From an uncultured Candidatus Binatia bacterium (GTDB taxonomy: Bacteria > Desulfobacterota > Binatia > UBA9968 > JAJDTQ01), in NCBI GenBank assembly GCA_964291295.2, contig OZ219755.1, positions 1-22,878 on the forward strand: a stretch of 22,878 nucleotides of DNA, read 5' to 3'. The notes beneath the pieces were generated by a model. The model made no database searches and was not told the origin of the DNA. It was given only the letters and a program-made list of their open reading frames with translations. The position numbers were made by a program, and so were the translations under genes. This document shows, piece after piece, positions 1,675-21,111 of this stretch. How positions within the stretch are numbered: the first letter of the stretch is position 1; every line of letters begins with the position of its first letter.

Positions 1675-2229
1675 TCACCGGGGCTCCGCGTCACCGCGGA
1701 CCGGTCCGGTCTCGGGCGCAGGCAGGCCCCCGGGTTCCTCGCCGGTTTTCCCTGCAGGCCTCGGCGCCGCGGAACGCCCCGCAAAGTAGAAGGCGATGGT
1801 GGCACCGACCAACGGCCCGAATGCCGTGATCACCGTTTCCAGGACCGTGCTGTTGGTCCCGTTTTCCCCAGCCGCGGCTGAAGGCAGGAACGGTGCGAAT
1901 GCGAGCAGAGTTATGTAGGCCCCCACAATCCACAGTGCGAGCATCGCCCGGATCGAACCCCGCGGAAGATTCAACCCGCGCAGTTCTCCGGAGTCGACAG
2001 TGGTACCGGACTTACAGCGTGCCAGCAACGGAAGAGCTCCCAGCACAAGGATGACGATGATCCACTGAGCTAGCAGAAACAGGGACGGTACGCTCCATTC
2101 CCTTATTGCCGGAACAGCAAGGATCCCCGTACCAAGACCCACTGCAAACAGAACGATGGCCATCCATATCTCCATGCGACAGGAGTCGCCGTTCCTGCTG
2201 AAACGCCCGTCGTCCGTTGCATTGCTCAT
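1675..2229 (-). CDS. Hypothetical integral membrane protein with about 4 TM helices
   Basis: GGAGG 7 nt before ATG 2229. Four hydrophobic stretches. Contains GLNLPRGSIRAMLAL and LVGATIAFYF motifs of an uncharacterised membrane family. Confidence 0.75.
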   Translation of the reverse strand: MSNATDDGRFSRNGDSCRMEIWMAIVLFAVGLGTGILAVPAIREWSVPSLFLLAQWIIVILVLGALPLLARCKSGTTVDSGELRGLNLPRGSIRAMLALWIVGAYITLLAFAPFLPSAAAGENGTNSTVLETVITAFGPLVGATIAFYFAGRSAAPRPAGKTGEEPGGLPAPETGPVRGDAEPR

Positions 2230-2251
2230 ATCCGGCCCTCCGGTATCCAGA

Positions 2252-2371
2252 TCATGCCGATTGTACTGGCATTTGCCGGAACATGCTCATGTGGATCCCC
2301 TCTTCGTCGACATCGATTATGGAATCTGAACAACCCGCACACAACAGCAACCCGGGGATATCCGGCTGCAA
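2252..2371 (-). pseudogene. 3' relic of the small duplicated gene (copies at 3848 and 10751)
   Basis: Hand translation LQPDIPGLLLCAGCSDSIIDVDEEGIHMS... matches PELLLC(T/A)GY...IDIDEE(M/R)GET. 20 nt (AACCCGCACACAACAGCAAC) are identical to 10816-10835. Confidence 0.7.
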
Positions 2372-2524
2372 CCGACGGGGAACCTCGCTTTCCGGTCACC
2401 GAACGGGGGCGGACGGACCCCGCCGGACCGCTCTCCCCGGGGCATCGGGAGGACCTCCGACCGGTCGGCCGGGAACGCGCCGCGGCCATGTGGTATGTAG
2501 AGTGGGCGACGGCCGCCGTCGCTC

Positions 2525-3112
2525 GTGGTCATCTCCGGTCATCCCGTGGCAAGTCGCGAGCACTGGGATCTTCTCCGGCAAGCGGCGGACCGGGTCGGAC
2601 GCGACCTGTATGCGGCGAAGATGCAGCCCACCATGCAGATGTGCCGGTTGCTGATCCTGGGGGAGGACCACAGGGTGGGCTGGCATCCGGGCGTGGATCC
2701 GCTCGCGCTCTGTCGGGCCGTGTGGCGGACCTACGGCCGGGGCCGCCAGGAAGGCGGTTCGACGATCGCGATGCAGTTCGTCCGTGTGCTGTCCGGACGG
2801 TTCGAGAGAAGCTGGCGCAGGAAGGTCGAGGAGATGGCTCTTGCGATCCGGGTGACCGGGCATGTGTCCAGTGCCGAACTGCCGGCGCTCTACCTCTTCG
2901 TGGGCTACTACGGATGGCGGATGAACGGCTTCCCCCAAGCCTGTCAGCGGCTGGGGATCGACCCGGCCCGTTGCTCGCTCCGGGAATCGGCGCTGCTGGT
3001 GGCGCGGCTGAAGTACCCGCAGCCCAGAGATTGCCCGGCGGAGCGATGGCGGCAGATCGTCCGTCGCAGCGAATACCTGCTGGCGCGGTACGAGAGGAGT
3101 GGATCATCTTGA
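2525..3112 (+). CDS. Stand-alone GT51 peptidoglycan glycosyltransferase (transglycosylase)-like protein without signal peptide or TM anchor
   Basis: Motif 1 EDHRVGWHPGVD (catalytic Glu kept), motif 2 GGSTIAMQFVR, motif 3 RKVEE, degenerate motif 4 (SAELPALYLF..YYG) and motif 5-like SALLVARLKYP. An in-frame stop at 2498-2500 rules out an N-terminal extension. Confidence 0.88.
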   Translation: MVISGHPVASREHWDLLRQAADRVGRDLYAAKMQPTMQMCRLLILGEDHRVGWHPGVDPLALCRAVWRTYGRGRQEGGSTIAMQFVRVLSGRFERSWRRKVEEMALAIRVTGHVSSAELPALYLFVGYYGWRMNGFPQACQRLGIDPARCSLRESALLVARLKYPQPRDCPAERWRQIVRRSEYLLARYERSGSS

Positions 3113-3819
3113 AGGGTTCGCCGGCCTTCCATCTGGACCCGGCGCTGGCGGCGCTGCGCGGCACATATCCGGATCCGGAGGCTGTGCTGGCGGCCGTGGG
3201 AGCGGGCCCGCGCGAGTGTGCGGCGGTGTCCCGCCTGTGGATGTCCGAAGGGATTCCCTTCGCTTTCCGGACGTGTCCGGCGCTGTACGAGGAAGCCCGG
3301 TCCTGGCTGGCCGAGCAGCTGGAGCTGGATCCCAAGGCAATCAGCCTGCGCGGCAGTGGCCGGATCGGCTACTCCCTGGATCCGGACCCGAAGAAATGGG
3401 GTGCCGTCTATTGCCCGCGGCGTTCCGATCTGGACATTTTCGCCGTATCGGAACGATTGTTCACCCGGCTCCGCGAGGACTTCGAGCGGTGGAGCGATGA
3501 CTATTCCAGCGGCGCGATCGTGCCAGGACGCAAGGATGAACGGAGATACTGGCCAGAGAACCACAAGAGGGTGCCCCGCAACATGGAGCGCGGGTTCCTC
3601 GACTCACAGAAGGTGCCGAACCGCCCGGCCTATCCCGTTGCCTCCAGGACCAATGACTGCCTTGCGAGGCTCTGGAAAAAGCTGCGGACAACGGATGCGG
3701 GTCCGACGCCCCGGAAAAGACTGACACTGCGGTGCTACAGGGACTGGTCAGCCTACGAGCGGCAGGCGATCTGCAACCTGCAGGCTGCAGCAGGTCGGAA
3801 CCGCTCGCGGGCGGGCTGA
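3109..3819 (+). CDS. Pol-beta superfamily nucleotidyltransferase, 236 aa
   Basis: 3' part of ORF 2254..3819. TTG at 3109 overlaps the upstream TGA (TTGA), with GAGGAG about 10 nt upstream. Carries ISLRGSGRIGYSL.P...RSDLDIFAVS (hGS...DhD) and C-terminal LRCYRDWSAY. Confidence 0.8.
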   Translation: MKGSPAFHLDPALAALRGTYPDPEAVLAAVGAGPRECAAVSRLWMSEGIPFAFRTCPALYEEARSWLAEQLELDPKAISLRGSGRIGYSLDPDPKKWGAVYCPRRSDLDIFAVSERLFTRLREDFERWSDDYSSGAIVPGRKDERRYWPENHKRVPRNMERGFLDSQKVPNRPAYPVASRTNDCLARLWKKLRTTDAGPTPRKRLTLRCYRDWSAYERQAICNLQAAAGRNRSRAG

Positions 3820-3847
3820 CGGCCCTGGATTTGCCCGACCGCTCGGA

Positions 3848-4090
3848 TCATGTTTCTCCCATCTCTTCGTCGATATCGATCGTGGCGAAGCCAGGCTCAG
3901 CGGATGTGGCCTCCGGGTAACCCGTACATAACAACAACTCGGGGCCATCCGGATCGGACCACTCGCGGCTCCGTATATAATCCAGTACCTCGCGCTCCGA
4001 TGCTGCACGCAGCAGAACCTTCCCGTCAACGCTGTTGATCAGATAGTCATCCCGTTGCGGCACTGCCGTGTCTGCGGATAGAATTTCCAT
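3848..4090 (-). CDS. Small hypothetical protein (80 aa), copy 1; weak resemblance to DUF5678-type proteins
   Basis: GGGAGG RBS before ATG 4090. Clear paralogue at 10751-10987 with the frame and stop position conserved. Confidence 0.7.
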   Translation of the reverse strand: MEILSADTAVPQRDDYLINSVDGKVLLRAASEREVLDYIRSREWSDPDGPELLLCTGYPEATSAEPGFATIDIDEEMGET

Positions 4091-4297
4091 GCGAACTAGC
4101 CTCCCTACACAGAAGTTTAGCTCCGATGGGACCCGCGTGCAGGCAATTCCACCCGGCAAACCGGTGGTAGAGTGCCCGGCATGGCCGAGGATCGACTGAG
4201 TTGATTGCCCGACTCCCTTTTATGTTGAGAGAGTGCCGGAGAGAGGCTAGGCCAAGCAAGCCGTGGGCAGCCTCTCCAAGCGGTCACAGGGGGTACA

Positions 4298-4335
4298 AAC
4301 AACCCGCACAGGACGGCAACCCGGAGGTATCCGGC
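4298..4335. repeat. 38-bp direct repeat of 2329-2366; second relic of the small gene
   Basis: AACAACCCGCACAggACgGCAACCCGGaGgTATCCGGC matches 2329-2366 at 33/38. Related sequence lies inside both full copies (3919-3952, 10816-10849). Confidence 0.75.
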
Positions 4336-4349
4336 GGCGGCCGCGATGG

Positions 4350-4883: not shown

Positions 4884-5801
4884 CTAGGGAACCGCCATCT
4901 GAATCTCCGCGATCTGGGTTTCAGCAACCACTCCCTGGAACCTCACTTCACCATCCGGTGTTACAGCATGGATGCGAATGCGTCCGGGGGGCACTCCTGC
5001 AAACCGTGCGGTCCCGGACGGGCTGGTATCCGTACGCTGGTGGAACGCCCGGCCATGCAGCAAGGATCCCCGCTCATGCGGCCGATATCCGGCAGGATCG
5101 GCTAGCAGCACCACGAGCGCACCCGGAACGGCTCCCCCGTTCCGGTCATGCAACTGGACGACCACAGTGCCTCCCTCCTCTTTCAGCACCAGATCCCCCA
5201 CGTCCATATGCCCGTTCTCTCGTACCATGGGCCCGAATGATACCGGGCGGTACCCTGCGACATGGGTATCCACGAAGAACGGAACCCCAACGCCAACGTC
5301 ACTCAACTGGAAGTAGCCGTCCCCGTCCGTCTGATGGAAGATATGGAAAGCTGCCCGGCGTACCGGCTGACCCGGCTCGTGGTAGCGAACATGAACCGTG
5401 GCATCGGCAATGCCCCGTCCAGCCGCATCCAGGATCCTTCCCGAGAGCTGCTGGGCCTCAGGAAACTCGATGTCCAGCAGCAGTCGACCGGTTGTCCCGG
5501 GTGGCAGGAATCGCTCGAACGGAGGTCGGCCCTCAGTAGAAACGTGGACCAGTATGCCATGCTGCGTTGGAGCGGAAATGCGGAAGTCCTTGCCACGCTC
5601 AACGATATGGGTTGTGACGACCAGTTCCGCTCCCTCCTCGAAGATGTCAACAGTTCCGCCTAGAGACTCGCCATCCGTGCTGCGGAGGCTTCCGGCTATC
5701 TCCACCGACTGGCCCGCGACGACCATACTCGTGCAAAAAGCCACAACCGCCAGAACGGTCATGGTTCTTGTCCTCCCACTTATCAGGTTCGATTGCTGCA
5801 T
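4884..5801 (-). CDS. Secreted protein with carboxypeptidase-regulatory-like (transthyretin/prealbumin-fold) repeats
   Basis: GGGAGG RBS before ATG 5801 and a signal peptide. Repeats such as LSGRILDAAGRGIADATV..TDGDGYFQL and V.LHDRNGGAVPGALV..TSPSGTARFAGVPPG. Confidence 0.82.
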   Translation of the reverse strand: MQQSNLISGRTRTMTVLAVVAFCTSMVVAGQSVEIAGSLRSTDGESLGGTVDIFEEGAELVVTTHIVERGKDFRISAPTQHGILVHVSTEGRPPFERFLPPGTTGRLLLDIEFPEAQQLSGRILDAAGRGIADATVHVRYHEPGQPVRRAAFHIFHQTDGDGYFQLSDVGVGVPFFVDTHVAGYRPVSFGPMVRENGHMDVGDLVLKEEGGTVVVQLHDRNGGAVPGALVVLLADPAGYRPHERGSLLHGRAFHQRTDTSPSGTARFAGVPPGRIRIHAVTPDGEVRFQGVVAETQIAEIQMAVP

Positions 5802-5814
5802 CAGAGATACCTCC

Positions 5815-6567
5815 CTATTCCCAGCCACAGCCGGTCTCGTATCCCGCATACACTTTCATTCGGAGCTGTGCATAGACATCACTGACAGGGTTGGTTGTGC
5901 TCGAAACATCTTGCCAGTCCGAGACTCCCTCACTGCATCCATAGTAGTCGCAGTTCAATGAGACGGTGATGCTAGGGTAGTACAGTGTTGTCACAAGGCT
6001 GTTTCCATTCCAGTCGAGTTCGTACAGTGACATAAAATTGGTTGGTTGAGTCCAAGACCTGAATGCGAATTTGCAGCCGTTTGAACTTGGCAGTGGTTCG
6101 GCCGATGATCCTTCGCATGGAATGGGCTTACGGTATACCCTGTTGCCAGGCGAAGCTATTCCCCGGGTAGAATATTGATAGTCCTTTGGCGAGTCACTAT
6201 CACCGTTGTAATACCTAGCGCTGCCTCTTCCGTATTTGATTCCAGAAGAACCTGTGCAAGAATTCCACTGCCAGATTTCTTCCCTAGTTCTCCAAGCCCT
6301 GCCCCGCTTCCATCCAGGAAACTGATTTGAATCGGCCACTTTACCGAAGTTCGATGTTACACCCCAGTTGCCGAACGGAGCTGAATGTATATCGCCATCA
6401 CACTCAACCCTTATTGTACTGTTGTTTCCAATGATTCTAGAGTGATTTTCCCCGGTATAGAAGGCCACGCAGTAATCAGTGAGCCCGGTTTCTTGGGCTG
6501 TCAGGCCTCCACCAACACACAGGAACGCGGTTGCAGCAGCAAGCCTCACTCTTCTTGTAATCGACAT
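5815..6567 (-). CDS. Secreted cysteine-rich hypothetical protein (250 aa)
   Basis: AGGAGG 8 nt before ATG 6567. Signal peptide ends ...GGGLTA. Eight Cys in the mature part, aromatic/Gly/Asn-rich, lower GC. Its stop codon abuts the next gene's RBS. Confidence 0.8.
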   Translation of the reverse strand: MSITRRVRLAAATAFLCVGGGLTAQETGLTDYCVAFYTGENHSRIIGNNSTIRVECDGDIHSAPFGNWGVTSNFGKVADSNQFPGWKRGRAWRTREEIWQWNSCTGSSGIKYGRGSARYYNGDSDSPKDYQYSTRGIASPGNRVYRKPIPCEGSSAEPLPSSNGCKFAFRSWTQPTNFMSLYELDWNGNSLVTTLYYPSITVSLNCDYYGCSEGVSDWQDVSSTTNPVSDVYAQLRMKVYAGYETGCGWE

Positions 6568-6589
6568 GGTTGCCACCTCCTATCCATAC

Positions 6590-7140: not shown

Positions 7141-7314
7141 TCCCGGGCGGCTTCGTGCTTCGCAGATCGCTACGAGCTGGAGGCGGACCATTTCGCGGTC
7201 ACGCTGCTGATGCCGCGGCGGCTGTTCACGGCAGACCTGCGCACGGCCGGAGAGGGCCTCCCGGCCATCGAGGATCCGGAAGCGCTGGGGTTCGCGCGCC
7301 ACTACCATGGATGA
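7141..7314 (+). pseudogene. ImmA/IrrE (DUF955) metallopeptidase internal fragment
   Basis: Hand translation SRAASCFADRYELEADHFAVTLLMPRRLFTADLRTAGEGLPAIE contains the E.EAD.FA..LLMP signature. The HExxH motif and start codon are missing. Confidence 0.75.
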
Positions 7315-7394
7315 ATCCGACGGCTCCCGTCTTGGGGCCGAATCCGGAAGCACGGCCAGGAGTCTGGCCTGGGCACGCGGGAGGAACGAGGGCA

Positions 7395-10300
7395 TTGCCT
7401 GACGAAAGGGAAAGCTGCACGCTGGCAGGGGACCTGCTGGCCGGCGGGCCACGATACCGGAAGGAAGACAACGTCCGGCGGGACCTCGACCGGCTGCTGG
7501 TGGCCCTGGGGGTGGAGCGCACCGATATCGAAGGGGATTACTCGGTCCCGGAGGGTGCGATTGATCTGTACCTGCCGCGGCATCGGCTGGTGATCGAGAC
7601 GAAGGCGACGGGGAAGGCGGCGGCCCCGGACGAAGTGCAGGCGGGTCGGCAGGAATCCGCGCGCGGGCAACTGGAACGGTATGTGCAGGCCGTCATAGCC
7701 GACCAGCTGCAACTGCTGCCGGTCGGCAAGGACCTGGCGCCCGAACGGCGCTGGACCGGTATCGTCACGGACGGCCGGTACTGGCACGTCTACGACTACC
7801 CGCATGCGGAGACGCCCCTGGCCGGGCGCCGGACGCTGCACACCGGGCCCTGGGAAACAGGGGCGGAAGCCCTGGCCACGCGGCTGCGCGACCTGCTGGG
7901 CAGCGAACCGGTCGGGCGGACCTGGATACCGGCGGACCCGGCCGCGCTGTTCCGCGAGAGTCTGGAGCAGCTGGTCGCACTGTACGGGGATCTGGAAGGA
8001 CAGCCCCTCCGCGACATGCGGACGAAGCAGGCTCTCTGGCACGACATGCTGCGCGTCTCCGGCATGTCACCGCCAGGCCGGGTGGCACCCGACCGCCTGT
8101 TCGCCACCCACACGCTGCTGATCGTGATCGCCCGCATGGTGGTGCATGCACTGACCGCTGCCGGCGGCCCGCCAACGGCAGCGCTGCAGGATGGATTCGC
8201 CAGTTGGGTGCTGGGCTGGCCCCAGGGCGAGCAGTGGACCGAGTCCCTGTGGCACATCGTCCGCAGGCACGACTGGCGACCGCGACGCGGCGACGTGCTG
8301 CGCTCCCTGTACGAGTCCTTCGTGCCCGCCGCCGACCGGCAGGTGTTCGGGGAGTTCTACACGCCCGACTGGCTCGCGGCCATGATCGTCGAGCAGGCCC
8401 TCGATGCGCAGTGGCTGCAGGCTGCGATCCGGCAGGCCGAAACCGCCCTCGAAGACCGGCAGCCGTTACGGGGCGTGGGCGTCCTGGATCCGGCCTGCGG
8501 ATCGGGCACGTTCCTGTATCATGCCGCGCGGCGCATTCTCGCCGCACCCGCCATGAACGGGCTCACGCCCGTACAGAAGGCCAATGTCACGGCGCTGCTG
8601 CTGAACGGTCTGGACGTCCATCCCGTGGCGGTCGAGATCAGCAAGGCCAACCTGATGCGCGTGCTGCCCGCGCAACCCACCGAGGGTGAGTCCGCGCTCC
8701 GCGTGTACCTGGGGGACGCTCTGCTAGCCCGCAAGGAGGACATGCCGCTGTTCGACGGGCCCCTCATGCGCATCGCCACACCCCAGGGTCGATCGGTCGA
8801 CATCCCCACGGAACTGGTCCGCCAGGATACCTTCGGGGACAGCATCCGGCGGCTAGTCCGCGCGGCCAGCCGGGAAGAGGCCGTGCCGGACACGGTCCTC
8901 GGCCGGGTCTCGGAAGCCGCCCGCAGCGACTTGCGGCAATGCCTGCACGATCTCACGGCCGTGATCGGCCGGGAAGGCAACTCGGTGTGGGCATGGTATG
9001 CGATGAATGTCGCCTCCCCGCACCTGCTGGCGCTGCGCAAGGTCAACCGCATCGTGGCCAATCCGCCCTGGGTCCAACTCGCCAGCATCCAGGAACCCGA
9101 ACGCAAGCGCCTCATGGAGCAACTCGGAAACCGCCTGCAACTGCAGGCCGGCGGCCATCAGTCCCCCCATCTCGACATCGCCACCTTCTTCGTGCGACGC
9201 GCCCGCGAACTGTATCTGGCCGACCCGCAGCGCGATCCGGCGATCTGGCTGGTCAAGAAGTCGTCCCTGCGCGCCGGGCACTGGAGAAAGTTCCGGGAAC
9301 AGCACCGGTCGCTGGCCCAGACCGTGGACCTGGAGCCCCTCCAGCCCTTCGGCGGCGGCGATGCCAGGAGGTGCTGCCTCCTGCTGGAAATCTCGCCGCT
9401 GCGGTTCAAGGGACTCAAGGGAAAAGCACGTGCACCCCGACAGTCCACACCCACACGCAACATGGTGGCACGCATGATGCTGCCCCGCGCAGCTCCCGGA
9501 CAGCGGCAGAGGCCCCGCGCGGAGGACTCCTGGAGCACGGTCCGGAACCGCATCGGATTCGAGCCCGCACCCGAGCCCCTGCCGCAAGCCTCCTCGGACT
9601 ACCAGGGGACATTTCGCCAGGGAGCGAGCATCGTCCCTCATGTCCTGCTCCTTGTAGATGCGGCCTTCCCGCAAGGCGAGCGGGTCCGGGTGCGGACCCG
9701 CCCATCCAGGCAGCCCCGCTGGAACGCTCTCGAACCCCGCCATGTGGAGATCCCGCAACACTGGCTCTCCACCCTGTACCTGTCGAAGAACCTGCGGCCC
9801 TTCCTCGCTGCCACCGGCACCACGCAAGCCATCATTCCCAAGGATCCGCAGGGCAACCTGACCCTGTCGTCCGCGCTGGACGAAGCCGCCTGGGAAGTCC
9901 TCGATGAGGCCTGGCGGACGCACCGCAGCAGAGGCCAGCGAACGCCCCGCACGCTGGCCGAGCGGGTCGATTTCAACGGCGGTCTGTCCGCCCAGTCGGA
10001 TGCCCTGGCCAGTGACCGGTACAGAGTGCTGTACCCGGCTTCCGGTGACATCATGCGCGCTGCCCGGGTGCCCGCAGGAAACGGAGTTGTGGATTTCTCC
10101 CTCTACTGGCTTCTGGCGGAAAGTCCGGACGAGGCGGGCTATCTGACGGCCCTCCTGAACGCGCCATGCCTATCCCGCGCCTTCGCCGCGTCCCGCGAGA
10201 GCGGGCGGGACTTTCACCTGCATCCGTTCCGCAAGGTGCCGGTTCCCCGTTACGATTCCCGGAACACCCAGCACGCCGAACTGGCCCGGCTCTGCCGGGA

Positions 10301-10472
10301 AGCGGAGACGGTAGCGGAACAGATGTTGCAGGACCGGCAGCGGGCAAGCTCCCGCGCCGTCCGTAGCCGCCTGCTCGACAGCGGCATCCTGGCCAGGATC
10401 GACACGCTCGTGGCGGACCTGTTGCCCGACCAGTCCGTTCCAGAACCCGCACTTGCTGGCCCCGCTCGTTGA
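7395..10472 (+). CDS. Fused restriction endonuclease / N6-adenine methyltransferase / target-recognition protein (type IIG/IIL-like)
   Basis: N-terminal PD-(D/E)xK (IDLYLPRHRLVIETK), FGEFYTPDWLA, motif I VLDPACGSGTFL, motif IV NPPW and a C-terminal TRD-like region (YL.ALLN). Start taken as TTG 7395 after GGAGGA; ATG 7311 is the alternative. Confidence 0.9.
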   Translation: MPDERESCTLAGDLLAGGPRYRKEDNVRRDLDRLLVALGVERTDIEGDYSVPEGAIDLYLPRHRLVIETKATGKAAAPDEVQAGRQESARGQLERYVQAVIADQLQLLPVGKDLAPERRWTGIVTDGRYWHVYDYPHAETPLAGRRTLHTGPWETGAEALATRLRDLLGSEPVGRTWIPADPAALFRESLEQLVALYGDLEGQPLRDMRTKQALWHDMLRVSGMSPPGRVAPDRLFATHTLLIVIARMVVHALTAAGGPPTAALQDGFASWVLGWPQGEQWTESLWHIVRRHDWRPRRGDVLRSLYESFVPAADRQVFGEFYTPDWLAAMIVEQALDAQWLQAAIRQAETALEDRQPLRGVGVLDPACGSGTFLYHAARRILAAPAMNGLTPVQKANVTALLLNGLDVHPVAVEISKANLMRVLPAQPTEGESALRVYLGDALLARKEDMPLFDGPLMRIATPQGRSVDIPTELVRQDTFGDSIRRLVRAASREEAVPDTVLGRVSEAARSDLRQCLHDLTAVIGREGNSVWAWYAMNVASPHLLALRKVNRIVANPPWVQLASIQEPERKRLMEQLGNRLQLQAGGHQSPHLDIATFFVRRARELYLADPQRDPAIWLVKKSSLRAGHWRKFREQHRSLAQTVDLEPLQPFGGGDARRCCLLLEISPLRFKGLKGKARAPRQSTPTRNMVARMMLPRAAPGQRQRPRAEDSWSTVRNRIGFEPAPEPLPQASSDYQGTFRQGASIVPHVLLLVDAAFPQGERVRVRTRPSRQPRWNALEPRHVEIPQHWLSTLYLSKNLRPFLAATGTTQAIIPKDPQGNLTLSSALDEAAWEVLDEAWRTHRSRGQRTPRTLAERVDFNGGLSAQSDALASDRYRVLYPASGDIMRAARVPAGNGVVDFSLYWLLAESPDEAGYLTALLNAPCLSRAFAASRESGRDFHLHPFRKVPVPRYDSRNTQHAELARLCREAETVAEQMLQDRQRASSRAVRSRLLDSGILARIDTLVADLLPDQSVPEPALAGPAR

Positions 10473-10750
10473 ACGAATCGCTGCCATCCTCGCCCGGCAG
10501 GTCCGCGACGTCGCCTGCTCCGGTCGCGTTCGCGACTATTCTTACCCAAGTGCCAGTGCGTGGCGAACACCACGCCAAACCTGGCGCGGGTTCTCGGTGG
10601 GTGCGAGCGTCGTCGCGTCGGGCCGGATCTTCGCATGTCGCGGCCTCGATGGTCACTGCGTACGACGTGCCGGGTTCTTCGATGCTGTCAACGAGCATTC
10701 GCCAGAGCTTCAATCTCATCCCCGGCCAACGAGGCCCGGACCGCTTGGCA

Positions 10751-10987
10751 TCATGTCTCGCCCCGTTCCTCGTCGATGTCGATCTCCACGAAGACCGGCG
10801 CAGCACGTTCTGTATAACCCGCACACAACAGCAACTCGGGGCCCTCCGGGTCGGACCACTTGCAGCCTCGTACGTAATCCAGCGCCTCGCGCCTTGATGC
10901 TCCACGCAGCAGAACCTTCCCGTCCACGCTGTTGATCTGATAGTCACCCCGTTGCGGCACTGTCGTATCGGTGGATAGAATTTTCAA
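10751..10987 (-). CDS. Small hypothetical protein (78 aa), copy 2
   Basis: GGGAGG RBS before TTG 10987. MKILSTDTTVPQRGDYQINSVDGKVLLRGASRREALDYVRG..WSDPEGPELLLCAGY...IDIDEERGET is a paralogue of 3848-4090. About 60 bp of upstream DNA is also conserved. Confidence 0.7.
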   Translation of the reverse strand: MKILSTDTTVPQRGDYQINSVDGKVLLRGASRREALDYVRGCKWSDPEGPELLLCAGYTERAAPVFVEIDIDEERGET

Positions 10988-11052
10988 GAACCACCCTCCC
11001 TGCACGGGAGTCTAGCTCCGATGGAACCCGCGTGCAGACAATTCCACCCTGC

Positions 11053-11722: not shown

Positions 11723-11773
11723 TTAGAAAGTAGAGAACCCGGAGACCGGTGGCAGATGGCCGAAGGAGGGAAC

Positions 11774-12592
11774 ATGCTCAAGAACGAAGTACCCCCATCC
11801 ACACTCGCGCTAGTGGTGGCTCTTGCTGGAACATATCTGTATGCTGTAAACCCGCTCCGCGCGCAACCCGTTCACGCTCCATCTTCGCGCGTCTCAATCG
11901 AAGTCTGGTGTGAAGACGATCGAAAGCGCCCTGTTCCCAACTGCAGCATGAGCATTCAGACGAGGCCACGTCAATATTCGAATGCTCATCTTCACATGGG
12001 AGGAAACCAACCAGTGAGCCTGTTAGGGACGTCAGAAACAGGACCATTCTCGGAACACATCATTGTCAACACAGGATCACGTGGAAAAACCACAGTATGG
12101 CTTAAGACTCATACCGTAGGACAGGCTGAAGATCTCCTAGCATGTTCAGCACGTGGCTGCATAGCGCAAACATATTTTATTGGTTATAATAACTTCGTAG
12201 AAGTTCTCGAAAACAACTTGTGGTTTCACGTTGGAGGTAGCACGACAAATCACGGAGACAATCGCTGGAATCACTGGATGACTCCATCAGCCATGAGAAA
12301 ATTAACGGCGACTGTAGCAAGCTTTAAATCGAAAAATCCAAGCTTGGGCAAACTCGCTGTCAACGACATGAGTTTGCCATTGGGTGGAACGTTTGACATC
12401 CGTCGGAACTGGCGTCCTCCCCACGAAGAGCACTCAATCGGTACGGCCGTCGATATCCGAGGAAACGGGGGTCCTGGGTCGATTCCACCCAGTAAACTAG
12501 CGGATTTTGTTGCTGAGTGCAGATTGAAAGGAGCCACAAGCGCAATAGCCGAAGGATCTGGTTCGAACCGTCATGTGCATTGCAAGTGGTAA
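11774..12592 (+). CDS. Secreted zinc peptidoglycan endopeptidase of the LAS clan (MepA/M74-like C-terminal domain)
   Basis: AGGAGG RBS and signal peptide (...NPLRA). Motifs NDMSLPLGGTFD...W.PPHEEHSIGTAVDIR (H-x6-D) and terminal HVH (HxH). N-terminal beta-rich, Ig-like region. Confidence 0.8.
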   Translation: MLKNEVPPSTLALVVALAGTYLYAVNPLRAQPVHAPSSRVSIEVWCEDDRKRPVPNCSMSIQTRPRQYSNAHLHMGGNQPVSLLGTSETGPFSEHIIVNTGSRGKTTVWLKTHTVGQAEDLLACSARGCIAQTYFIGYNNFVEVLENNLWFHVGGSTTNHGDNRWNHWMTPSAMRKLTATVASFKSKNPSLGKLAVNDMSLPLGGTFDIRRNWRPPHEEHSIGTAVDIRGNGGPGSIPPSKLADFVAECRLKGATSAIAEGSGSNRHVHCKW

Positions 12593-12626
12593 AAATCAAG
12601 TGAGAAATTCGACAGGAAAGGACATC

Positions 12627-13709
12627 ATGACACGTTCTATTTATATTGCAGTGATCACATTTATTGCTGCACTACAAACACCTGCTCAGGAGGCTTATCC
12701 CCAGATAAAAATCCTTCCATTCCGTAGCTGTGATTCGATTGCAAACGCAGAGCAAAACTCCGAATTGAAGTCCGTCCGGGAAGAAGTTCAGAAATTAGTT
12801 ACAGAGCTTCCGCGAGGGCGAGATAGGGATCTCGCCTTAGATCTATTGAGGGAGATTTCCGGAGGTATGCAAGACGGCTTATGCATGGCATTCAAGGATG
12901 GCGAATTCATGGCCCGTATTGTCGGAAATTCCGAAATTGGCGACAAGGACCCTGAGATTACCTTGGGAGATCGCAGTTCTCCAGAGATCAAGGTCGATGT
13001 CACAGAACTGCCAGAGGAAGCTGGCTTCGGCTACGTGTATCTCGTTTCGAACAAGGACCAAGCGAGAGATGCAATTACCACTTGGGGGGTAATGACACCC
13101 AAGGATGACCAAGCGTTGCGGATGGATCATCCCCTCTGGGAAGTCGTTTTGTCCCACGTTCCAGCGAGCGGGCATATGGCCGTAAAGGAACTCCCCGACG
13201 CAGAGGCTCGAAAAATGCCGAATATTGGGTCTGGGACCGACTTTTCGCGGTGGAGAGCCCCAACAGAACAACTGACGATCGGCCCCGGTTCGAGCCAGTT
13301 CCCTTTCACCCTGAAATCCCGTTTCCTACCAGGCTGGACGACAGCCTATGTGGGCTCCGAGGAAACTGTCAAGCTACCACAGAGCCCCATCTCCCCCAAA
13401 GCCCAAACCGCCCTGAACGAACTGGCGACACCGGAGAACTTCTATTCCAACGTAGTGACCATCGGACCCAAGTTCGCCCCCGAAACAGATCGCAGCTGGA
13501 TTGCGGGCGATTGGCATTTGGGAATCCAGATGATGACATCGGCGGATCAGCTTGAAGCCGGTTCGCCCTACGTTGTCAGTCTTCTGCAATCCTTGGCTCT
13601 GATTGCTGCGTCCGCATCCAAAGCACAAGTAGACCTGAAGGTCAACGAAGAACCGAAAGAGGGCTTGGAGGCCGTGCTCGACAAGGCCGTTCGTATGGCT
13701 TTGCGCTGA
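12627..13709 (+). CDS. Secreted hypothetical protein, paralogue 1 (360 aa)
   Basis: AAAGGA RBS before ATG 12627 and a signal peptide. Shares LPGWTTAYV.S, IGP.F, W..GIQ.M, SPYV..LL and G.E..LD...RMA with the next gene. Confidence 0.85.
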   Translation: MTRSIYIAVITFIAALQTPAQEAYPQIKILPFRSCDSIANAEQNSELKSVREEVQKLVTELPRGRDRDLALDLLREISGGMQDGLCMAFKDGEFMARIVGNSEIGDKDPEITLGDRSSPEIKVDVTELPEEAGFGYVYLVSNKDQARDAITTWGVMTPKDDQALRMDHPLWEVVLSHVPASGHMAVKELPDAEARKMPNIGSGTDFSRWRAPTEQLTIGPGSSQFPFTLKSRFLPGWTTAYVGSEETVKLPQSPISPKAQTALNELATPENFYSNVVTIGPKFAPETDRSWIAGDWHLGIQMMTSADQLEAGSPYVVSLLQSLALIAASASKAQVDLKVNEEPKEGLEAVLDKAVRMALR

Positions 13710-13736
13710 CCAACCACAAAAGAGGCAACCAACGCA

Positions 13737-14864
13737 ATGTTAACTAGATCTCAGACTGCCCTGATCGCTCTCGTATTCATCACGCCAGTATTCACCCAAG
13801 CACAATGGGTGGGTGCCGTCCGGGGCTGGTTCTCAACCCCTGGATGTGAACCTGATCCAGCACTTGATTCATCCAGAAATATCAATGACGATCAAGATGA
13901 AGATGGCGAACAACCTAAACTTGCCACCCGAGTACACGAACTCACAAAGTCACTTCCAGAAGGACGGGCACGGGAGCTTGCACAGAAACTTGAAACATCC
14001 CTCCGTCCAAGAAATCACCTGACGTATGTTTGCAAGGATAAGACGGAGACTGGATACGTTATCCGTTACCCAAAGAACTTGGAAGTTCAATACGATTCGG
14101 ATACTGAGGTTGTCGAGATTCGTTATGAGACTAGCAACCTTGGTCGACCAAAGATCAAATTTGATGTCACCGTTGATTTGGAAGAGAAAATGTTCCAATA
14201 CTCATACAGATTATCGAATGATAGCAATGCCACTAGGCCAATCGCAGGATGGTACATAGTGACAGATCCAGAAGATTCTTCTATACAGTCCGGAAACTCA
14301 GATAACTGGATAAATAGGGATCCGTATACTTTTCCATCTTGGGCACCTCAGTCTGCTTTATATGAAGATATTAGTGGCCCAGAATTGATAAGTGTTGAGC
14401 AGCCAGGAAGGCTAGTAATATGGAAATCAAGACAAACACTACAGCCGGGAGATAGTGCGGGAATTTTCACGATAAAATCTATTTTATTACCCGGATGGAC
14501 GACAGCATATGTGCGAAGTACAGGCCCATTAACACCACTTCCACGTTACCTAGATGGAGTCCCAAAACAGGCATTAGAAGAGATAGGTTTTCTTCAAAAA
14601 TGGGAAAATGGATATTCTTCAATTCCAGTAATTGGGCCTAGATTTGATGCCAATGTGGATAATACAGAAATATTCTCTAACTGGCTGAATGGAATACAAA
14701 TAATGATTAGACATGATTGGCTAAGCGGAGACTCTCCATACGTCAAGGAGTTACTCGAGTTCCTGCGGGATCCATCTATAGGAAAATTGAGTTCACACAT
14801 CCAATCCAAACCCATGAAAGGCATGGAGGAATTGCTGGACAGGATCATCCGCATGGCCTTCTAG
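13737..14864 (+). CDS. Secreted hypothetical protein, paralogue 2 (375 aa)
   Basis: AGAGG RBS and signal peptide (...VFTQA). Same motifs as the upstream gene. Lowest-GC coding DNA in the window (spot counts 20-27 G+C per 60 nt). Confidence 0.85.
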   Translation: MLTRSQTALIALVFITPVFTQAQWVGAVRGWFSTPGCEPDPALDSSRNINDDQDEDGEQPKLATRVHELTKSLPEGRARELAQKLETSLRPRNHLTYVCKDKTETGYVIRYPKNLEVQYDSDTEVVEIRYETSNLGRPKIKFDVTVDLEEKMFQYSYRLSNDSNATRPIAGWYIVTDPEDSSIQSGNSDNWINRDPYTFPSWAPQSALYEDISGPELISVEQPGRLVIWKSRQTLQPGDSAGIFTIKSILLPGWTTAYVRSTGPLTPLPRYLDGVPKQALEEIGFLQKWENGYSSIPVIGPRFDANVDNTEIFSNWLNGIQIMIRHDWLSGDSPYVKELLEFLRDPSIGKLSSHIQSKPMKGMEELLDRIIRMAF

Positions 14865-17170: not shown

Positions 17171-17274
17171 TGCCCAGCCGGCCATGGGCCGGTAAAGGCG
17201 CCGGGCTCCGCCCCGGCGCGCGTGTCGCGGCGCTGCACGAACCGGCGGTGGAAATGCTATCATGTCATGACGGT

Positions 17275-17694
17275 ATGCGACGCGACACGCTCCAGATCCG
17301 CATCGATCCCCAGCTCCGCGAGCAACTCGCCCGCCTCCGCTCCCACCACCACCTCAATGTCTCCTCCTGGGCCCGCCAGGTCATCGCCGAGGCCCTCGAG
17401 CAACAGTTCCCCGAACTCCCCCCGCCAGCTCCTCCCGACCCCGATCCGCCGACCAGGCCCCCCGACCCCACGCCCATCCCCGGCTGGAGACCCTGCCGCC
17501 TCCCCGATGGCTCCTGGGGCTCTTCCCTCCCCGATCCACCTCCCGACCTGCTCTCCCAGGACCTCCCCGGCCGCTCCATCTCCGTCACCGACCGCTCCGG
17601 TCAGTCCTGGATCGCCTCCGTCTCCTCCGTCATCGAACTCTCCCCCTCCCGCATCACCGTCAAAGACTCCGGCCGCCCCGCCAAACGTCCCTGA
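17275..17694 (+). CDS. RHH-type DNA-binding protein with Pro-rich linker and small C-terminal beta domain
   Basis: MRRDTLQIRIDPQLREQLARL....LNVSSWARQVIAEALE has a ribbon-helix-helix pattern. Preceded by extended -10 TGcTATCAT (17255-17263) and palindrome GTCATGAC (17264-17271). Confidence 0.7.
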   Translation: MRRDTLQIRIDPQLREQLARLRSHHHLNVSSWARQVIAEALEQQFPELPPPAPPDPDPPTRPPDPTPIPGWRPCRLPDGSWGSSLPDPPPDLLSQDLPGRSISVTDRSGQSWIASVSSVIELSPSRITVKDSGRPAKRP

Positions 17695-17704
17695 GCTACC
17701 CTCC

Positions 17705-17989
17705 ATGGCCATCCGCTCCTTCGCCAGCCGCAAGACCCGACGCTTCGCCAAAGGCGATACCCGCCGCCTCCCCCCAGCCTTGGCCACCAAGATCATCTCC
17801 GTTCTCGAACAACTCGATTCCCTCTCCGACCCCGCCGACATCCTCCAACTCGGCCACCAGACCCACGCCCTGACCGGCGATCGCAAGGGCTTCTTCGCCG
17901 TCCCCATCTCCGGCGCCTGGCGCGTCGTCTTCCGCTTCGCCGACGGTAACGTCTATGATGTGGAAGTGGTCGACTACCACCGCAGCTGA
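17705..17989 (+). CDS. higB: HigB/RelE-family toxin (plasmid maintenance killer), 94 aa
   Basis: 3' end of ORF 17222..17989: MAIRSFASRKTRRF...HALTGDRKGFFAVPISGAWRVVFRFADGNVYDVEVVDYH. Confidence 0.93.
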   Translation: MAIRSFASRKTRRFAKGDTRRLPPALATKIISVLEQLDSLSDPADILQLGHQTHALTGDRKGFFAVPISGAWRVVFRFADGNVYDVEVVDYHRS

Positions 17990-17995
17990 TTCCCC

Positions 17996-18316
17996 ATGAC
18001 ACTCTACGAACAGGACGGCTCCATCTCCCCCGAGCAACTCCAGACGCTCCTCTCCTCCATCCGTCGCTCCCCCTCCCACCCCGGTCGCTTCCTCCTCGAA
18101 GCTGCCCACAACAAATCCCTCAGCCTCTCCCAGGCCGCCCGCCAGATCGGCGTCGACATCGCCTCGCTCTCCCGCGTTACCGAGGGCCGCGCCCCGGTAA
18201 CACCCGAACTCGCCCTCCGCCTCGAAACCGCCGGCTGGGCCAGTGCCCATACCTGGCTCCGCCTGCAAACTCAGTACGACCTCGCCCAAGCCCGCCGCAA
18301 CCTAGCGGCCGCCTGA
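17996..18316 (+). CDS. higA: HigA antitoxin (XRE HTH)
   Basis: PSHPGRFL..., AARQIGVDIASLSRVTEGRAPVTPELALRLE...W LRLQTQYDL. Starts 6 nt after higB. Confidence 0.93.
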   Translation: MTLYEQDGSISPEQLQTLLSSIRRSPSHPGRFLLEAAHNKSLSLSQAARQIGVDIASLSRVTEGRAPVTPELALRLETAGWASAHTWLRLQTQYDLAQARRNLAAA

Positions 18317-20784: not shown

Positions 20785-21111
20785 CTACTCTGCGGCGGGC
20801 GGTCCGCCACTTTTGGACAGGGGCGCGATTTCGGGCCGGCCACGCTTGGCAAACAAGTCGTTCAGCGCTTCGGCGAGCAACTCCTGGATTGTAGTTTCCT
20901 CTTCGGCAGCGAGCAGGCGGAGTTGCTTCTTCACGACCGGGGGGAAGTAAGCGGTTACGTTCGTTTTTGATTCCCGCCCAGGTCGGTAGTGGCGGTTGCG
21001 CGGAATCGAAGGCGGCGGTGGCGGTTCCGCTGGAGCTGCGTCACCGTCGGGAGCCCGTGTTCGGGCGCCTTGCAGCATGGCCTGCCGTAAGTCGGCCGTT
21101 CGTTTAGCCAT
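20785..21111 (-). CDS. RHH centromere-binding partner of ParA (type Ib partition adaptor)
   Basis: Flexible N-terminus, then R..K.NVTAYFPP.VKKQLRLLAAEE.TTIQELLAEALNDLFAK.G.P. Overlaps the parA stop; GAGGTG RBS. Confidence 0.85.
   Translation of the reverse strand: MAKRTADLRQAMLQGARTRAPDGDAAPAEPPPPPSIPRNRHYRPGRESKTNVTAYFPPVVKKQLRLLAAEEETTIQELLAEALNDLFAKRGRPEIAPLSKSGGPPAAE

Follow-up and report, generated by a model that had tools for sequence, protein, structure and literature searches.

The window analysed here is the entire 22,878-bp contig OZ219755.1, one of three contigs in the genome assembly GCA_964291295.2 of an uncultured Candidatus Binatia bacterium. Two short genes on its forward strand overlap between positions 2525 and 3819. 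Gene 1 codes for a protein with a GT51 transglycosylase domain and gene 2 for a member of an unnamed protein family with motifs reminiscent of Pol-beta nucleotidyltransferases (Table 1). Homologues of the two occur side by side as a conserved, mobile two-gene unit, which is the subject of the present analysis.

Gene 1 is read from a GTG codon that directly follows an in-frame stop. An alternative in-frame GTG at position 2546 would give a product of 188 residues, the commonest length among homologues. The TTG start of gene 2 is supported by homologues that begin at the aligned position. A preliminary description of the window, made from its letters alone, had reported a TTGA overlap of the two genes with an internal Shine–Dalgarno site; both open reading frames are indeed found on the forward strand, and the AGGAG sequence is present. 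As judged by this arrangement, gene 2 is produced in step with gene 1 through translational coupling. Overlap is common among relatives as well: it is seen in 46 of 57 loci (−14 bases in 25, −4 in 5, and other overlaps in 16), and a gap of more than 22 bases occurs in one locus only, by an estimate that takes the nearest start and is biased towards small gaps. A promoter scan of positions 2150–4250 yielded no promoter-like site and a single terminator-like site at chance level. Rfam and transfer RNA scans of the window gave no relevant match.

Gene 1 is, by profile and motif comparison, a full GT51 domain with both catalytic glutamates kept and without an anchor. It matches the Pfam family PF00912 (Transgly) with an E-value of 2.1e-26 and 92.9 bits (cut-off 27) over profile positions 25–176 of 178. 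This is its sole Pfam domain; the transpeptidase domain (PF00905) and BiPBP_C (PF06832) are absent. The best NCBIfam model is PBP_1c (TIGR02073; E 5.9e-28), with 97.9 bits versus a cut-off of 494.2. In GT51 enzymes, textbook polymerases of the cell wall that act outside the cytoplasm, motif 1 (EDxxFxxHxG) bears the catalytic Glu and motif 3 (RKxxE) a second Glu. In the gene 1 family, motif 1 (E47 D48 .. H54. G56), motif 2 (G77. S79 T80. A82 M83 Q84), and motif 3 (R99 K100 .. E103) are invariant in all 37 aligned members. A profile of the family aligns to the GT domain of Aquifex PBP1a (2oqo) at an E-value of 2.7e-20 with motifs 1–3 in register, and the Asn of the LYLN sequence in motif 4 is substituted. 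The Pfam match, the alignment to 2oqo, and the hydropathy given below agree with the preliminary description, which had seen motifs 1–3 with the catalytic Glu, an altered motif 4, and neither an anchor nor a transpeptidase domain.

Short relatives of gene 1 are numerous: a word-based search returned 845 proteins of 107–342 residues at E ≤ 0.001. Among longer proteins, extended forms of the family score between 2e-79 and 7e-22. The nearest canonical relatives are penicillin-binding proteins (PBPs) of the PBP1C type, which carry transpeptidase and BiPBP_C domains and reach about 1e-16 at 33–46% identity. The score gap between the gene 1 family and PBP1C recurs in a plasmid collection. By these scores, the family is distinct from PBP1C, its nearest housekeeping relative. 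With PBP1C, MtgA, and the class A PBPs, gene 1 shares the catalytic domain and the intact motifs 1–3. It differs from PBP1C and the class A PBPs by having no anchor, transpeptidase domain, or BiPBP_C domain, by its altered motif 4, and by belonging to a family that is mobile and patchy rather than core.

Neither protein features a hydrophobic segment, the maximal Kyte–Doolittle mean over 19 residues being 0.95 for gene 1 and 0.94 for gene 2. Such a segment is likewise absent from 115 of the 120 best short homologues of gene 1 and from most stop-to-stop frames across 58 loci. Together with the score gap, this shows that the close homologues are not membrane-anchored housekeeping PBPs, of which gene 1 might have been a truncated copy; this objection, too, had been foreseen in the preliminary description, and it fails. 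Since gene 1 has no export signal or anchor, its product is predicted to be located in the cytoplasm or at the inner face of the membrane and would act there. The remaining 5 of the 120 short homologues, and some of the fusions described below, do carry a hydrophobic helix; in these variants the N-terminus is acidic or neutral, and an Arg-rich stretch follows the helix. A positively charged flank marks the cytoplasmic side (the positive-inside rule), and the GT51 domain of the anchored variants should therefore face the cell interior—opposite to that of ordinary PBPs.

This topology bears on a constructive envelope function, in which GT51 would add to or alter peptidoglycan or another glycan such that the wall resists phage endolysins or other stress without killing, and gene 2 would serve as a helper or regulator that is not necessarily an enzyme. 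For the homologues without signal peptide or anchor, the window protein included, the wall is unreachable by any known route, the charge pattern of the anchored variants indicates an inward-facing domain, and any use of nucleotides by gene 2 would require a cytoplasmic location of the fused forms. Such a function is unlikely, although every catalytic and substrate-binding motif of GT51 is kept, an N-terminal hydrophobic segment does occur in the few relatives and fusions just mentioned, and a precedent exists in Audmula, a lactococcal antiphage protein with a GT51-like domain that is encoded on a plasmid (Grafakou et al. 2024, NAR, PMC11381338; PNAS 2025, PMC12184496). Audmula is proposed to thicken the wall, delaying lysis, and not to act by abortive infection (PMC12184496). 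Compared by description only, Audmula resembles the gene pair in being carried by a mobile element and in its GT51/PBP-transglycosylase-like domain, and it sets a precedent for phage protection by such a domain. The system is described as a single gene of 392 residues with 4–5 N-terminal transmembrane helices and no partner gene (PMC11381338), whereas the GT51 protein of the window has no transmembrane segment and comes with gene 2.

The two genes form a conserved unit. A locus scan with a profile of gene 2, taking one genome per species, yielded 60 loci, of which 58 have a GT51 homologue as the immediate 5′ neighbour in the same orientation. The other two are a locus that starts at a contig edge (L051) and one with a frameshifted copy and no GT51 gene (L058). 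This pairing, first hinted at by the lists of gene 1 and gene 2 relatives from word-based searches, is far above chance, and the objection foreseen in the preliminary description—that homologues might not be co-located in other genomes—fails. After clustering of all flanking open reading frames of these loci, no third conserved neighbour was found. Two separate copies of the pair (L010 and L030) lie about 140 kb apart on one Latescibacterota chromosome, OZ250150.1. Co-evolution of the two proteins was also considered by way of identity correlation. The Spearman coefficient of 0.45 over 49 loci is driven by the five closest loci, the other 44 giving 0.25 (p 0.11), and this line of evidence was rejected.

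In some lineages the two genes are fused, and such fusions are frequent. Among the best 150 relatives of gene 2, all five with lengths of 428–634 residues bear an N-terminal Transgly domain. The fusion P0392 shows 73% identity to gene 1 and 65% to gene 2; another fusion, P0395, likewise matches both window proteins, and in the fusion P0236 the gene 2 part ends partway. In Vibrio mytili the locus (L019) is a single open frame of 405 residues. An AlphaFold2 model of the fusion P0263, with a predicted local distance difference test score (pLDDT) of 92.9 and a predicted template modelling score (pTM) of 0.74, is compatible with a defined two-domain arrangement but is no proof of it.

Pairing and fusion also decide on the reading of gene 1 as a remnant of a housekeeping PBP beside a hypothetical gene, the two being unrelated and without a common function. 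Among canonical proteins, those of the PBP1C type are closest to gene 1, and RefSeq labels the copy on the Aliarcobacter plasmid pM830MA as “biosynthetic peptidoglycan transglycosylase” plus a hypothetical protein, a name in keeping with such a remnant. The short form is, however, conserved across the 845 proteins found, is paired in nearly every locus and repeatedly fused, and is set off from PBP1C by a wide score gap. Conservation and co-occurrence refute this reading, whose probability is practically nil.

The distribution of the pair is patchy, in the manner of a mobile accessory module: the 60 loci span, as named in their records, about a dozen phylum-level groups, and only 5 of 401 genomes sampled from the phylum of the window itself hold a match. 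The window is, by its complement of plasmid genes (RepC, ParA, a MobA-type relaxase, and MobC/NikA), a mobilisable plasmid. The preliminary description had placed the pair in plasmid cargo near restriction–modification and toxin–antitoxin genes, and a type IIG enzyme as well as HigB-like and helix–turn–helix (HTH) genes are found on the contig. On pM830MA the pair is flanked by IS21 on one side and, on the other, by genes for DUF4365, PLD-like, TIR, DUF4917, and AAA ATPase proteins. On a contig from IMG/VR (L099) it follows a gene with 73% identity to P2 gpD and precedes a Mug-like gene, flanks that suggest a position at the end of a P2-like prophage. Of the 150 nearest neighbour open reading frames of 58 loci, most are not defence genes, and few belong to defence or mobile families: counted within the 25 commonest families listed, these are N6_N4_Mtase (three), Mrr_cat, Mrr_cat_2, integrase, and transposase (two each), and RhuM and RelE (one each).

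Gene 2 belongs to a large family without a name. It has no match at E ≤ 1 in Pfam, NCBIfam, or PADLOC. A word-based search found 153 relatives, and an exhaustive search with the gene 2 profile found 1096 representative clusters at E ≤ 0.001, 272 of them at E ≤ 1e-30. In an alignment of 47 sequences the motifs G82 S83. R85. G87. S89, S106 D107 L108 D109, and R208 C209 Y210 .. W213 are invariant or at least 90% conserved, which bears out the GS...SDLD motifs and the C-terminal Y..W element noted previously. In an AlphaFold2 model based on this alignment (pLDDT 94.1, pTM 0.88), G82–S83 follow strand 78–81, D107/D109 lie at strand 109–113, and D165 lies on strand 163–165. The Pol-beta pattern of Kuchta and colleagues from 2009 reportedly consists of hG[GS], [DE]h[DE]h, and h[DE]h, located on strand 1/helix 2, strand 2, and strand 3. 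Gene 2 contains this pattern, with GS and DxD unchanged throughout the 47 sequences and a conservation of at least 90% for D165. The spacer between GS and DxD measures 23 residues, as compared with the usual 9–13 in Pol-beta proteins.

Several profile comparisons point, if weakly, in the same direction. PF01909 is touched by 7 of 47 relatives with a best, sub-threshold E-value of 0.016; the fusion P0378 reaches a likewise sub-threshold nucleotidyltransferase signal at E 0.01, and the distant relative in locus L091 touches PF18765 at E 0.0074. An hhalign comparison with 16 minimal nucleotidyltransferase (MNT) proteins of related genomes gives a probability of 18.5% and an E-value of 0.0013 over 28 columns that cover the GS...SDLD core only. 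The nearest named ESM Atlas clusters carry NTP_transf_2 or Polbeta. In contrast, Foldseek returned no match to the gene 2 model at E ≤ 0.001 in PDB or BFVD, and a profile search of PDB sequences gave rows at chance level only. Because of the invariant GS...SDLD...D on the expected strands and the several weak profile signals, gene 2 is probably—although by no means certainly—a divergent Pol-beta nucleotidyltransferase. Of the earlier assignment to these enzymes, the motifs and the sub-threshold signals stand, whereas neither a curated family nor a fold match backs it.

The family also occurs with another partner. Three of the five matches in the phylum of the window are divergent. In one of these genomes (G148), a GT51 gene is paired with a shorter relative of gene 2. 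In the other two (G158 and G374), a gene 2 relative is followed by a gene for a GmrSD_N (DUF262) protein, with overlapping stop and start codons (L090, E 8e-20; L091, E 2.7e-23). A metagenome scan with a two-sequence alignment of these relatives gave one locus (L093) of the same arrangement, its partner being judged by the DGQQR-type sequence alone, and a rescan of the phylum with this alignment returned the same five genomes. A reciprocal model of the GmrSD_N-linked relatives matches gene 2 of the window at an E-value of 2.7e-7. The GmrSD_N family is known chiefly for its members in type IV restriction and among the accessory proteins of BREX, and DUF262 proteins of this GmrSD/BrxU type tie the gene 2 family to restriction-type defence components. 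These pairs differ from the window pair by their GmrSD_N partner in place of GT51 and by the opposite gene order. The gene 2 relative and GmrSD_N look like a second undescribed two-gene module, and the swap of partners shows the gene 2 family to be a shared component that couples to different enzymes.

Two further alternatives are affected by this partner swap. One is a two-enzyme pathway, in which GT51 and then a nucleotidyltransferase-like enzyme would work on one lipid-linked or soluble glycan. A sugar hydroxyl might, for example, be nucleotidylated in the way known from the nucleotidyltransferases for aminoglycosides or lincosamides, and the outcome would be either an altered precursor or resistance to some lipid II-targeting compound. 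Fusion and strict co-occurrence are a classic sign of a shared pathway or complex, and catalytic residues are conserved in both proteins; however, the surroundings hold no other conserved genes of a pathway, the pair is mobile and patchily distributed, and the GmrSD_N partners are unlinked to glycan chemistry, all of which renders such a pathway quite improbable. The other alternative reverses the roles: gene 2 would be the toxin—a nucleotidyltransferase acting on transfer RNA or another target, like MenT and AbiEii—and the GT51-like protein its antidote or a sensor of wall precursors. In pairs of the AbiE/MenAT type the nucleotidyltransferase toxin is the downstream gene, as is gene 2, and gene 2 is the component common to the GT51-linked and GmrSD_N-linked pairs. 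This assignment of roles is nevertheless a distinctly poor prospect, as gene 2 has no match to AbiEii or any curated nucleotidyltransferase family, the gene order in the GmrSD_N pairs is the opposite one, and an antidote needs no invariant GT51 glutamates and substrate-binding motifs.

The reading favoured here is that of a conflict module, in which a GT51 effector facing the cytoplasm is regulated by its partner; we put its probability at about 40%, so that it remains tentative. The defence or toxin–antitoxin part of this reading is drawn from context alone, and the pair does have the generic traits of toxin–antitoxin and abortive-infection loci, namely small size, coupling, and mobility. The module would be self-contained and horizontally mobile, with a single fused gene in some lineages. 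Its GT51 protein would meet lipid II or a similar undecaprenyl-pyrophosphate-linked precursor before flipping, which is the sole plausible substrate at that site, and would polymerise or trap it on the wrong side of the membrane. The undecaprenyl carrier would thereby be locked up, and wall synthesis would stop. The partner may restrain GT51 or switch it on, either via nucleotidylation or via a nucleotide product. The role of such a module would be abortive infection or phage defence, or the addiction of a plasmid or prophage. The cytoplasmic site of action, the substrate, the identity of the effector, the nucleotidyltransferase chemistry, and the defence role are what we infer. A more specific version—abortive infection or addiction by peptidoglycan polymerisation on the cytoplasmic side, with the inward-facing GT51 turning lipid II into dead-end glycan strands and sequestering the carrier, gated by a new Pol-beta branch that also gates GmrSD_N-type effectors—is a conjecture with the odds well against it.

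A number of observations weigh against the conflict module. Stable fusions are unusual for a classical toxin–antitoxin pair with a labile antitoxin. The pair is present in 1 of 72,556 plasmid records (pM830MA) and in none of 50,697 phage records, and many of its other neighbours are housekeeping genes, such as those of ribonucleotide reductase and OMP decarboxylase. PADLOC-DB v2.0.0 yields no match to either protein at E ≤ 1, which also accords with the earlier statement that the pair fits no known system. For gene 2, the want of a curated family and of a fold match and the weakness of the PF01909 and MNT signals tell against the nucleotidyltransferase part of the proposal. Finally, a GT51 domain with intact catalytic residues could equally have a constructive role.

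Known two-gene systems provide partial parallels to the proposed conflict module. MntA–HepT relies on nucleotidylation, the reaction by which its minimal nucleotidyltransferase, bearing a GS...DxD motif, renders the partner harmless. This type VII (MNT–HEPN) system is likewise a small mobile pair, and it is the GS...SDLD core of gene 2 that aligns to MNT. In contrast, gene 2 has no HEPN partner, is twice the size of MNT, and features a conserved N-terminal helical region, the 23-residue spacer, and a score below the PF01909 threshold; the gene order is reversed. Besides Transgly, neither window protein has a PADLOC or Pfam match that would assign the pair to MNT–HEPN, AbiE/MenAT, or CBASS. Hailong consists of the ion channel HalA and the nucleotidyltransferase HalB (Tan et al. 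2025, as summarised in PMC13434031). According to that summary, it resembles the proposed wiring in being a two-gene operon whose nucleotidyltransferase restrains a toxic, membrane-directed effector (PMC13434031). The partner in the window is, unlike the transmembrane channel HalA, a soluble GT51 protein. The suggested likeness of gene 2 to HalB found no backing, as neither sequence search nor Foldseek gave a PDB match, in libraries whose inclusion of HalB is unconfirmed. In the literature searched, neither a pair of GT51 and nucleotidyltransferase nor a cytoplasmic GT51 toxin is described; the supplements of large defence-prediction papers lay outside this search. What would be new about the conflict module is an effector without precedent and an unnamed regulator family, whereas the layout of two genes for effector and regulator is known.

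A large, conserved GT51 family that is free of export signals and tied to an unnamed, enzyme-like partner would imply either an attack on lipid II, or a use of it, from within the cytoplasm or else a second job for the GT51 fold. If the pair is a defence or addiction system, the pool of cell-wall precursors becomes a new effector target. The same case would provide a new regulator family—with its 1096 representative clusters, without a Pfam entry or a fold match to a solved structure—that occurs in GmrSD_N-type systems as well. With two genes in about 1.3 kb and natural fusions at hand, the module is easily tested.

Table 1. Coordinates of the gene pair, of further genes in the window, and of the GmrSD_N-linked loci
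Feature	Position	Strand	Remarks
Gene 1	2525–3112	+	195 aa from GTG 2525; GT51 domain protein without anchor
Gene 2	3109–3819	+	236 aa, TTG start; unnamed family, Pol-beta-nucleotidyltransferase-like motifs G82-S83, D107-x-D109, D165
AGGAG, Shine–Dalgarno-like site for gene 2	3095–3099	+	within 3′ end of gene 1; nine bases 5′ of TTG
TTGA start/stop overlap	3109–3112	+	TTG of gene 2, 3109–3111; TGA of gene 1, 3110–3112
Type IIG restriction-methyltransferase	7155–10472	+	1105 aa; PADLOC REase_MTase_IIG, E 1.4e-39; weak Pfam N6_Mtase, MmeI_Mtase
HigB-like toxin domain	end of open reading frame 17222–17989	+	followed by HTH protein 17996–18316
Ribbon–helix–helix (RHH) antitoxin-like protein	20785–21111	-	adjoins ParA
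Gene 2 relative and GmrSD_N-type pairs	L090 3938–5604; L091 3921–5554; L093 113–1721		relatives 191–210 aa, partners 339–348 aa

The plasmid carries a repeat of about 46 nucleotides in four copies that are found nowhere else in the genome; they belong to the stretches 3848–4159 (minus strand), about 10750–10995 (minus strand), 2290–2400, and 4298–4343. The repeat corresponds to the 3′ ends of the coding sequences of small paralogous genes on the minus strand, the products of which end in ...PELLLCxGY...IDIDEE.GET, and an interpretation as cassette boundaries or as an RNA element was rejected for this reason. The first two copies look intact, and the last two look like remnants. Each copy lies just 3′ of cargo, with the GT51 pair as one such block and the type IIG enzyme as the other. 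The product of 3848–4159 has no Pfam or PADLOC match.

Three consecutive open reading frames at 11756–14864 on the plus strand (278, 378, and 375 residues) have a G+C content of 46–54% versus a plasmid average of 64%; they are without a Pfam or PADLOC match and look like recently acquired cargo. Two open reading frames at 4884–6576 on the minus strand have 52–59% G+C, one with a CarboxypepD_reg domain and the other without a family. Both feature hydrophobic N-termini and may be secreted or envelope proteins. Open frames without a Pfam match run off both ends of the contig at 3–980 and 21863–22876, both on the minus strand, and may be one gene across the junction if the contig is circular.

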